From a virus (lineage: Duplodnaviria; Heunggongvirae; Uroviricota; Caudoviricetes), in the IMG/VR virus record IMGVR_UViG_2778261064_000023: a stretch of DNA of 12,643 bases. One strand, given 5' to 3'. The position numbers and the translations under genes are program-made. The notes beneath the pieces are model-generated. The model searched no databases, was not told the DNA's origin, and was given only the letters and a program-made list of their open reading frames with translations. Below, one piece after another: positions 9,262-9,458 of the stretch; positions within the stretch are counted from its first letter, which is position 1; each line of letters begins with the position of its first letter.

Positions 9262-9458
9262 CGGGTCCTTCCCGGAACCTTAAGCGCCGGGGGTACGGGT
9301 ACGCGCAATTCTTAACTGTTTATGAAAATTTTTCGGGAAAAGTCAGATCCGTTCTTCTTCTCTGTAACTCATTGTTTAATGGTAAAATCATCAAAAAAAG
9401 AAAGGATCTGACAGTGGTCATTTTGGGCCAAAAATGACGTTATCAGATCCTTTCTCAG
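9262..9458 (+). other. cos-like site 2 with complete lambda-like architecture: cosQ-like, cosN-like, then cosB with three TCAGATCC R-elements (direct, inverted, direct)
   Basis: CGGGTCCTTCCCGG 9262-9275; GGGGGTACGGGTACGCGC 9288-9306; TTTATGAAAATTTTT 9319-9333 (as in lambda); TCAGATCC at 9343-9350, its inverse GGATCTGA at 9404-9411, TCAGATCC at 9443-9450, i.e. about +50, +110, +150 from cosN like lambda R3, R2, R1. Confidence 0.6.

Follow-up and report, generated by a model that had tools for sequence, protein, structure and literature searches.

Cos-type SaPIs such as SaPIbov5 carry a satellite copy of the cos site of their helper and are packaged by the unmodified helper terminase, having no terS of their own. 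SaPIbov5 also possesses two putative cos sites (cited in PMC6092414), and a helper-matching cos has been reported in another satellite, the HE-PICI 11capE, where a copy of the cos of helper 50icd is likewise packaged by the unmodified helper terminase (PMC10111431). In EcCICFT073 (PMC6092414, PMC6739421), rppA lies behind cos1, and the 280-bp gap after rppA holds another, inverted cos; the two sites form the published cos1/cos2 pair. The cos1 type of this island is Rpp-dependent: it has no phage-like R repeats, and the island Rpp heterodimerises with the TerS of the helper. Both sites are functional when cloned, with cos1 serving as the main site for lambda and phi80 (PMC6092414). In phage lambda itself, cos is followed by nu1 (PMC9026076, PMC4669245), and the cosB of the Salmonella phage Gifsy-1 has been described previously by the Feiss laboratory (PMC9026076, PMC4856287). 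Here, we compare these systems with a second cos site, cos2, at positions 9262–9458 of a 12,643-nt viral record (IMGVR_UViG_2778261064_000023), the whole of which is referred to below as the window.

A PICI-type island with a convergent second cos site

The window is 99.6–99.7% identical to an island located between cspD/yljB and clpS in Escherichia coli STEC383, STEC316 and P393-F10. It opens with an integrase (1–1239) and an AlpA-like HTH regulator followed by Icd-like and DUF4222 genes, and continues through a DUF927 primase (3920–6064), SSB (6658–7080), ProQ/FinO (7117–7653) and PerC (7650–7937, +), after which comes the packaging region. A second PerC-family regulator gene (12272–12643, +) lies on the other side, so that two such genes in the same orientation flank the packaging region. 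No capsid or tail genes were found in the island, either by Pfam or in the annotation of the identical island of P393-F10. This backbone (int, alpA-like, primase, SSB, PerC) is that of Gram-negative PICIs such as EcCICFT073 (PMC6092414).

Within the packaging region, cos1 (10290–10075, −) precedes terS (10067–9483, −), and cos2 (9262–9458, +) converges upon them. The same layout, in which cos1 leads into terS or an rpp gene that is met head-on by cos2, is found in the islands of CFT073, O157, ATCC 25922 and C5. As in EcCICFT073, where the packaging-specificity gene is rppA rather than terS, the second cos directly abuts the 3′ end of that gene, and its cosQ and cosN are lambda-like. Three of the other islands have a TerS-like gene in the place of rppA. 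One, that of O157:H7, adjoins phoQ, and its cos2 combines the lambda cosN with the same three copies of the 8-mer TCAGATCC as the window; in that of ATCC 25922 the flanks of cos2 are identical and the R elements are 21-type; the third is that of C5. Judged by gene order and alignment, 9262–9458 is the cos2 of a PICI-type satellite, and other islands share its convergent orphan position. The first-pass annotation had remarked that no co-oriented terS stands behind the site, and this holds: the only downstream TerS homologue is the opposite-strand gene at 9483–10067, which presents its 3′ end to cos2.

The C5 island (L007, NZ_CP010122, 10001–11673, corresponding to window 9262–10944) has the cos2-terS-cos1 block flipped relative to SSB, ProQ and PerC, placing terS in the same orientation as the island operon, and it carries pyocin, immunity and PAAR cargo where the window has its DUF1441 module.

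Despite the shared position, the window differs from EcCICFT073 in several respects. The cos2 of the latter was reported to be without a phage cosB, whereas that of the window has a complete R3-I1-R2-R1 of Gifsy-1 class; its repeats are of CATGTCCGG type in a different arrangement; and the window island lacks an rpp gene and instead has four cos sites along with two complete TerS homologues. Its three R elements and the lack of RppA in the window also set cos2 apart from the Rpp-dependent cos1 type. Our own inspection of the EcCICFT073 cos2 (L014, CFT073 18150–18340, −), though it was reported without a phage cosB, showed three repeats like CATGTCCGG, two of them inverted and one direct. These repeats resemble 21-type R elements with a 1-nt insertion, and the TerS and cosB of the resident helper, prophage 4, are both 21-type.

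Anatomy of cos2

The interval 9262–9458 aligns with lambda cos column for column over its entire length, in the order cosQ-cosN-I2-R3-I1-R2-R1, and the R3-I1-R2-R1 layout of lambda that the first-pass annotation had proposed is thus retained. The cosQ heptamer GGGTCCT (9263–9269, +) matches the lambda cosQ core exactly and lies 22 nt upstream of the putative nick, as it does in SerU-like phages and in cos1 (23 nt in lambda). Alignment to lambda, Gifsy-1 and SerU-LTIIb places cosN at 9290–9305 (+), where the putative 12-nt cohesive end GGTACGGGTACG (9292–9303) is flanked by GG on its left and CG on its right. This segment retains the dyad GTAC..GTAC and the CG on the right, as against a left flank of GG where CG is conserved, and 7 of the 12 cohesive-end positions differ from lambda (5/12 match). 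Downstream follows an I2-like AT-rich spacer (9306–9341, +) that includes TTTATGAAAATTTT, a block invariant in lambda, Gifsy-1, SerU, prophage and island cos sites. R3 (GTCAGATCCGTTCTTCTT; 9342–9359, +), with the core CAGATCC, has the same sequence in Gifsy-1, SerU and E. coli prophages. I1 contains an IHF-like site, AAACAATGAGTTA (9365–9377, −), which agrees with WATCAANNNNTTR at 12 of 13 positions, and the segment is homologous to lambda I1 in the lambda alignment (TAACTTAATGTTT against TAACTCATTGTTT). R2 (9395–9412, −) is an inverted copy of R3 with an exact core at 9404–9411, and R1 (TCAGATCCTTTCTCAG; 9443–9458, +), identified by repeat search, is a direct copy.

Exactly three exact copies of TCAGATCC occur in the 12.6-kb window, all of them within 9262–9458 (9343–9350, +; 9404–9411, −; 9443–9450, +), against a chance expectation for the window of ~0.4 from simple base-frequency arithmetic. 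Counted from bp 1 of the putative cohesive end (9292), these repeats start at bp 52, 113 and 152, which confirms the direct, inverted and direct copies first placed at about +50, +110 and +150 from the cosN-like motif. The CAGATCC core at bp 53–59 occupies the register of lambda CGTTTCC, and the R cores of cos2 fall at bp 53, 113–120 (inverted) and 153. Unlike lambda, cos2 has AGA rather than GTT at bp 54–56, a change made together in all three R elements. The repeats exceed 8 nt, with R3 (9342–9359) and R2 (9395–9412) forming 18-nt inverted arms that are 89% complementary, and 9443–9455 of R1 being a 13-nt direct copy of R3. A shuffle test, in which any 8-mer was present at least three times in the 197-nt region in 132 of 20,000 shuffles (p ~0.007), is crude and inflated by A/T runs, and homology was therefore used as the decisive evidence. 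Homology to phage cos sites begins at cosQ and ends just past R1, indicating that only the functional cassette is carried.

The unusual cohesive 12-mer was considered as a sign of decay, an explanation rejected on account of near-identical 12-mers in phage-like loci with full TerS and TerL: GGTACGGGTACG is 1 nt away from the 12-mers of the phage-like loci L045 (GGTACGTGTACG) and L070 (GGTACGCGTACG), and GGTCTGGGGACG and related 12-mers likewise occur in SerU-like loci of this kind. In the SerU-like phages as a group (IMG/VR loci L045, L056, L057, L070, L092 and L119) the cohesive 12-mer is hypervariable, with 7 variants of mean pairwise identity 0.71, despite 99% identity across bp 30–70, and the island lineage carrying this cos2 (L019, L023, L030 and L044) shows the same pattern. 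The variants retain G1, G2, C11 and G12 together with a dyad (GTAC..GTAC or GTC..GAC). Gifsy-1-like phages have one invariant 12-mer.

R2 and R1 fold into a 28-nt hairpin (−36.2 kcal/mol, z = −6.3). Together with the U-run that comes next on the minus strand, this hairpin resembles a terminator for terS(−); it was seen by folding and missed by a simple terminator scan, and it probably also terminates terS(−) transcription. Its place 25 nt past the terS(−) stop lends some support to an explanation in which cos2 is kept mainly for a role outside packaging, either as a TerS or terminase decoy against the helper or as the terminator of the convergent terS. Such a role would also fit the far better conservation of cosB than of the cosN 12-mer among island variants, as well as the increase in lambda transfer on deletion of cos2 from EcCICFT073 (PMC6092414). 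We nonetheless regard it as unlikely, given that a terminator leaves R3, I1, I2, cosQ and a dyad-symmetric cosN in lambda register unexplained, that the same hairpin is present in phage cosB, where terS is co-oriented, and that 12-mer variants shared with phage-like loci do not speak of decay; moreover, the EcCICFT073 cos2 supports plasmid transfer when cloned (PMC6092414).

R elements and the TerS recognition helix

The 8-mer had been thought new, a view overturned by a search of deposited phage genomes, which found that Salmonella phage Gifsy-1 and the E. coli SerU-LTIIb prophage share the cosB of cos2: TCAGATCC is the R element of both and of many E. coli and Salmonella prophages. Prophages in the complete genomes of E. 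coli FDAARGOS_1290 and RM10042, each with lysis genes, cos, terS, terL and portal, have the same three CAGATCC elements. CAGATCC thus occupies all three R sites in Gifsy-1, FDAARGOS_1290 and RM10042, and R3 and R2 only in SerU, where R1 is GAGATCC. The core, layout, spacing, I2 and I1-homologous segment of the Gifsy-1/SerU-LTIIb cos are common to cos2, which also shares with the SerU group a similar cohesive 12-mer class (GGT..GGG.ACG). On this evidence the TerS-binding repeats of cos2 are assigned to the Gifsy-1/SerU-LTIIb packaging-specificity class, known from phages. The two settings differ downstream, where those phages have a co-oriented Nu1-family terS with the helix RT[IV]T[AG]WQS 20–30 nt past R1 and then terL, and cos2 meets the 3′ end of an opposite-strand terS of other specificity.

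A pattern scan of IMG/VR (TATGARAATTTT-N11-CAGATCC) returned 102 loci, the window itself being L071. Among those that could be classified, 72 were phage-like, with a co-oriented Nu1-family terS 20–30 nt past R1 and a full TerL wherever checked, and 35 were island-type, with a convergent gene in its stead. The recognition helix of the adjoining TerS followed RT[IV]T[AGT]WQ[SN] in 72 of 72 phage-like CAGATCC loci (RTITAWQS, 35; RTITGWQS, 18; RTVTAWQS, 14; RTITTWQS, 4; RTITAWQN, 1). Other R classes pair with other helices: CGTTTCC of lambda with RTIQNWQE, and CATGTCGG of phage 21 and CFT073 prophage 4 with RTIERWQS. These pairings are in line with genetic work that set residues 20 and 24 of TerS against bp 56 and 59 (PMC4669245). 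The prediction that the changed R sequence implies an altered TerS specificity therefore stands as far as a distinct helix goes, in 72/72 phage-like loci, and gives way in that the class is one that pre-exists in phages. No TerS with RT[IV]T[AGT]WQ[SN] is encoded in the window; such a TerS is encoded by a co-resident prophage in 16 of the 34 genomes with a window-type cos2.

Small terminase homologues and other cos sites of the island

The gene convergent with cos2 (9483–10067, −) encodes a Nu1-family TerS of 194 aa (Pfam Phage_Nu1, E = 8e-68; lambda TerS in PDB, E = 1.5e-38), which is 66% identical to lambda TerS over its first 98 residues and whose stop codon lies 25 nt from R1. Its helix, RTIERWQT, is phage-21-like (7/8 identical to the phage-21 helix), and its C-terminal tail is a PICI-specific form of the lambda-like type with a 12-residue extension. 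[quoted passage not shown] Upstream of the gene is cos1 (10075–10290, −), its cognate cos by alignment with CFT073 prophage 4 (21-type), whose cos it matches closely, and by an inverted repeat; on the minus strand it comprises cosQ (10285–10279), the cohesive 12-mer GGGCGGCAGACG (10256–10245) and 21-type R elements CATGTCGG (10203–10196 and 10102–10095). Having its own upstream cos1 with matching 21-type R elements, this protein is accounted for.

The second homologue (8268–8777, +) belongs to the DUF1441 family (Pfam, E = 3.6e-35; phrog_141, 'terminase small subunit', E = 6.9e-55) and is 61–64% identical to the TerS of the lambdoid phages phi458 and mEp460, whose TerL is gpA-like. Directly upstream, as in these two phages, alignment identifies a third cos, of phi458/mEp460 type, cosA (8043–8140, +; cosQ GGGTCCT, 8047–8053; 12-mer GGGCGACGGACG, 8076–8087). 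A fourth cos-like site, cosA′ (11179–11255, −), has the cosQ GGGTCCT and the same 12-mer GGGCGACGGACG (11221–11210), with no terS behind it. Read from left to right, the packaging region has cosA, the DUF1441-type gene and cos2 pointing rightwards, then terS, cos1 and, further on, cosA′ pointing leftwards. A 74-nt inverted repeat (8045–8118 and 11179–11252) was considered as an invertible segment and dropped when its arms proved to be cosA and cosA′. The 8268–8777 protein was also considered as an RppC/RppA homologue and rejected, there being no PDB match to RppC; tblastn found no RppA homologue anywhere in the window. No remnants of phi458 terS or terL were found in 8700–9300, and a literature search for PICIs with DUF1441 found nothing. 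Between the DUF1441-type gene and cos2 lie a bidirectional terminator-like hairpin (8825–8850) and the downstream copy of a 29-nt direct repeat (8745–8773 and 9121–9149, 97% identical), by which the 3′ end of the gene is duplicated ~376 bp downstream, just left of cos2. The duplication suggests an insertion or the remnant of a second DUF1441 gene end.

From these arrangements we infer that the two island TerS proteins serve other cos sites, the Nu1-type protein acting at cos1 with its 21-type cosB and the DUF1441-type protein at cosA. The idea that an island protein, either the DUF1441-type TerS or the Nu1-type TerS, binds the CAGATCC repeats draws on the presence of two TerS homologues with N-terminal HTH domains within 700 bp of cos2, the first of them co-oriented with it. 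Against this, the DUF1441-type protein already has a cos to itself, and one of the same type precedes its phage homologues. Besides the window, 101 IMG/VR loci show the CAGATCC cos pattern (with 35 of the classifiable loci being island-type), and just 3 of these 101 have a DUF1441 gene upstream; the gene is missing from the O157, C5 and ATCC 25922 islands. The Nu1-type helix RTIERWQT fits the CATGTCGG repeats of cos1 and not CAGATCC, which pairs with RT[IV]T[AGT]WQ[SN] in all 72 phage-like loci. Binding of cos2 by an island protein is thus highly improbable: neither TerS appears a good candidate, the predicted cognate helix being found only in phages.

Conservation of cos2 among islands

A cos2-like site was present in 439 of 5426 complete E. 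coli genomes (≥80% query coverage). The cosB class at this position varies between 21-type and Gifsy-type beside near-identical island genes, and cos2 therefore does not correspond to the island protein next to it. Between island variants, identity is 95.7–100% for cosB (bp 13–175), compared with 89.5–95% for the adjacent terS coding sequence. In PSS-15-type islands (L006, NZ_AP027709) most of terS(−) is deleted (window 9545–10050), with cos2 kept intact and cos1 also present. These islands also have an IS21-family element inserted between PerC and DUF1441.

An orphan cos of this kind might instead be a defunct remnant, left when the island once recombined with a phage of Gifsy-1/SerU type, a history consistent with the missing co-oriented terS, the non-canonical left flank (GG) of cosN, the junction at 9262 that forms a mosaic breakpoint relative to the C5 island, and the duplicated 29-nt DUF1441 3′ end nearby (9121–9149). 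A relic would hardly be expected to retain three exact R cores, to have a cosB better conserved than the neighbouring coding sequence, to survive as an intact cassette where terS itself is deleted (the PSS-15 island), or to hold its position across diverged PICIs in hundreds of genomes, and we judge this reading even less likely than a decoy or terminator role.

Association with a SerU-like prophage

The window-type cos2 was found in 34 complete E. coli genomes, and a SerU-like cos-terS in 38 of 5426. The two coincide in 16 of the 34 (Fisher p = 1.7e-27, odds ratio 217), figures that carry no phylogeny correction and include several near-clonal strains, though the 16 double carriers include strains from different countries and hosts. 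The other 18 of the 34 were without a SerU-like prophage by this search. No second CAGATCC site was found in O157:H7 genomes with a CAGATCC cos2, and the IMG/VR scan contained no second viral contig from the source genome of the window (IMG 2802429220).

The SerU-like prophage co-resident with the island in P393-F10 is a complete lambdoid prophage, running from lysis genes to cos, terS, terL and portal. Its R3 and R2 are the same as those of cos2, its R1 core is GAGATCC rather than CAGATCC, and its 12-mer GGTCTGGGGACG is identical to GGTACGGGTACG of the island at 9 of 12 positions, with 3 differing. This prophage (L120, NZ_CP076274 1116215–1128594) carries subtilase cytotoxin (SubAB-like) genes just upstream of the lysis cassette and cos, at the place where the original SerU-LTIIb element has LT-IIb. 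Its TerS (WP_096836044) combines the helix RTITGWQS with a 21-type C-terminal tail. By analogy with lambda-21 hybrids (PMC9026076), the differing tails suggest that the island TerS would not partner the TerL of this prophage, and with this helper the island would consequently depend on cos2 and the helper TerS.

A helper phage is accordingly a plausible source of the cognate TerS of cos2. It had been proposed at the outset that this protein must come from elsewhere, either from the upstream TerS-like gene at 8268–8777 or from a helper phage; the helper route gains from the co-occurrence of a rare prophage of the same cosB class, and the 8268–8777 protein is an unlikely source, as a member of the DUF1441/phrog_141 family with its own cos (8043–8140) that is missing from most islands with the same cos2.

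A proposed route of packaging from cos2

With the anatomy and homology of cos2 established, along with the pairing of R type and helix type, a convergent position conserved among PICIs and the co-occurrence with a matching prophage, we think it probable that cos2 is a helper-mimicking cos read by the helper's own TerS, a minimal complete lambda-type cassette of the Gifsy-1/SerU-LTIIb class; its binding, cutting and packaging we infer. A lambdoid helper, likely the co-resident SerU-like prophage of SubAB or LT-IIb type, would supply its own TerS with the helix RT[IV]T[AGT]WQ[SN]. A TerS dimer would span an IHF bend at I1 to contact both R3 and R2, R1 being the third site, and would anchor the helper TerL on cosN, leading to nicking. 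Island concatemers would then be packaged rightwards from cos2 into helper capsids, and no island-encoded specificity factor would be needed. At ~14 kb between its flanking genes, the island would by our estimate fill a lambdoid head with ~3 units; filling by about three units has been proposed for EcCICFT073 (PMC6092414).

Such a route resembles that of 11capE and the cos-type SaPIs, from which the window island differs in that those satellites have no terS of their own and it adds two TerS-plus-cos modules of other specificities. Several observations count against it: the GG left flank of cosN, the 12-mer 3 positions away from that of the co-resident prophage, the 18 of 34 genomes in which this search found no SerU-like prophage, the O157:H7 genomes with no second CAGATCC site, the lack of a second viral contig from the source genome in the IMG/VR scan and, in EcCICFT073, transfer by lambda and phi80 that went up, not down, once cos2 was deleted (PMC6092414). 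The last implies that cos2 is not the main route with these two phages, and the EcCICFT073 data can be read as cos2 being dispensable, or even costly, with non-matching helpers.

The context is more interesting than cos2 itself, with four cos sites, two TerS families and a matching co-resident helper. We put forward, more tentatively than the route above, that the island may be a multi-specificity packaging hub, whose four cos sites of three classes (two phi458/mEp460, one 21 and one Gifsy-1/SerU) and two TerS families could make use of lambdoid helper terminases of three or more kinds. Within such a hub, cos2 would be the TerS-less 'pure mimicry' route, tuned in cosB and cohesive-end class to the co-resident toxin-converting (SubAB or LT-II) prophage, and PICI cos2 sites in general might be swappable cosB cassettes that track local helpers.

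Conclusions

Virulence and defence genes travel with PICI satellites at high frequency, and the set of phages able to mobilise an island depends on packaging recognition of its DNA. Published work on E. coli PICIs has stressed Rpp redirection to cos sites without a phage cosB; the cos2 described here points to a simpler route at a known cos2 position, with a full phage-type cosB whose match is a rare co-resident prophage bearing toxin genes, SubAB in the case of P393-F10. The strict association of CAGATCC with RT[IV]T[AGT]WQ[SN] over 72 loci gives the TerS-DNA recognition code a third natural reference point, after lambda and 21. If the proposed route is confirmed, a comparison of R-element class with TerS recognition helix could make the helper range of such islands predictable from sequence, and the spread of the island would be linked to specific toxin-converting phages.
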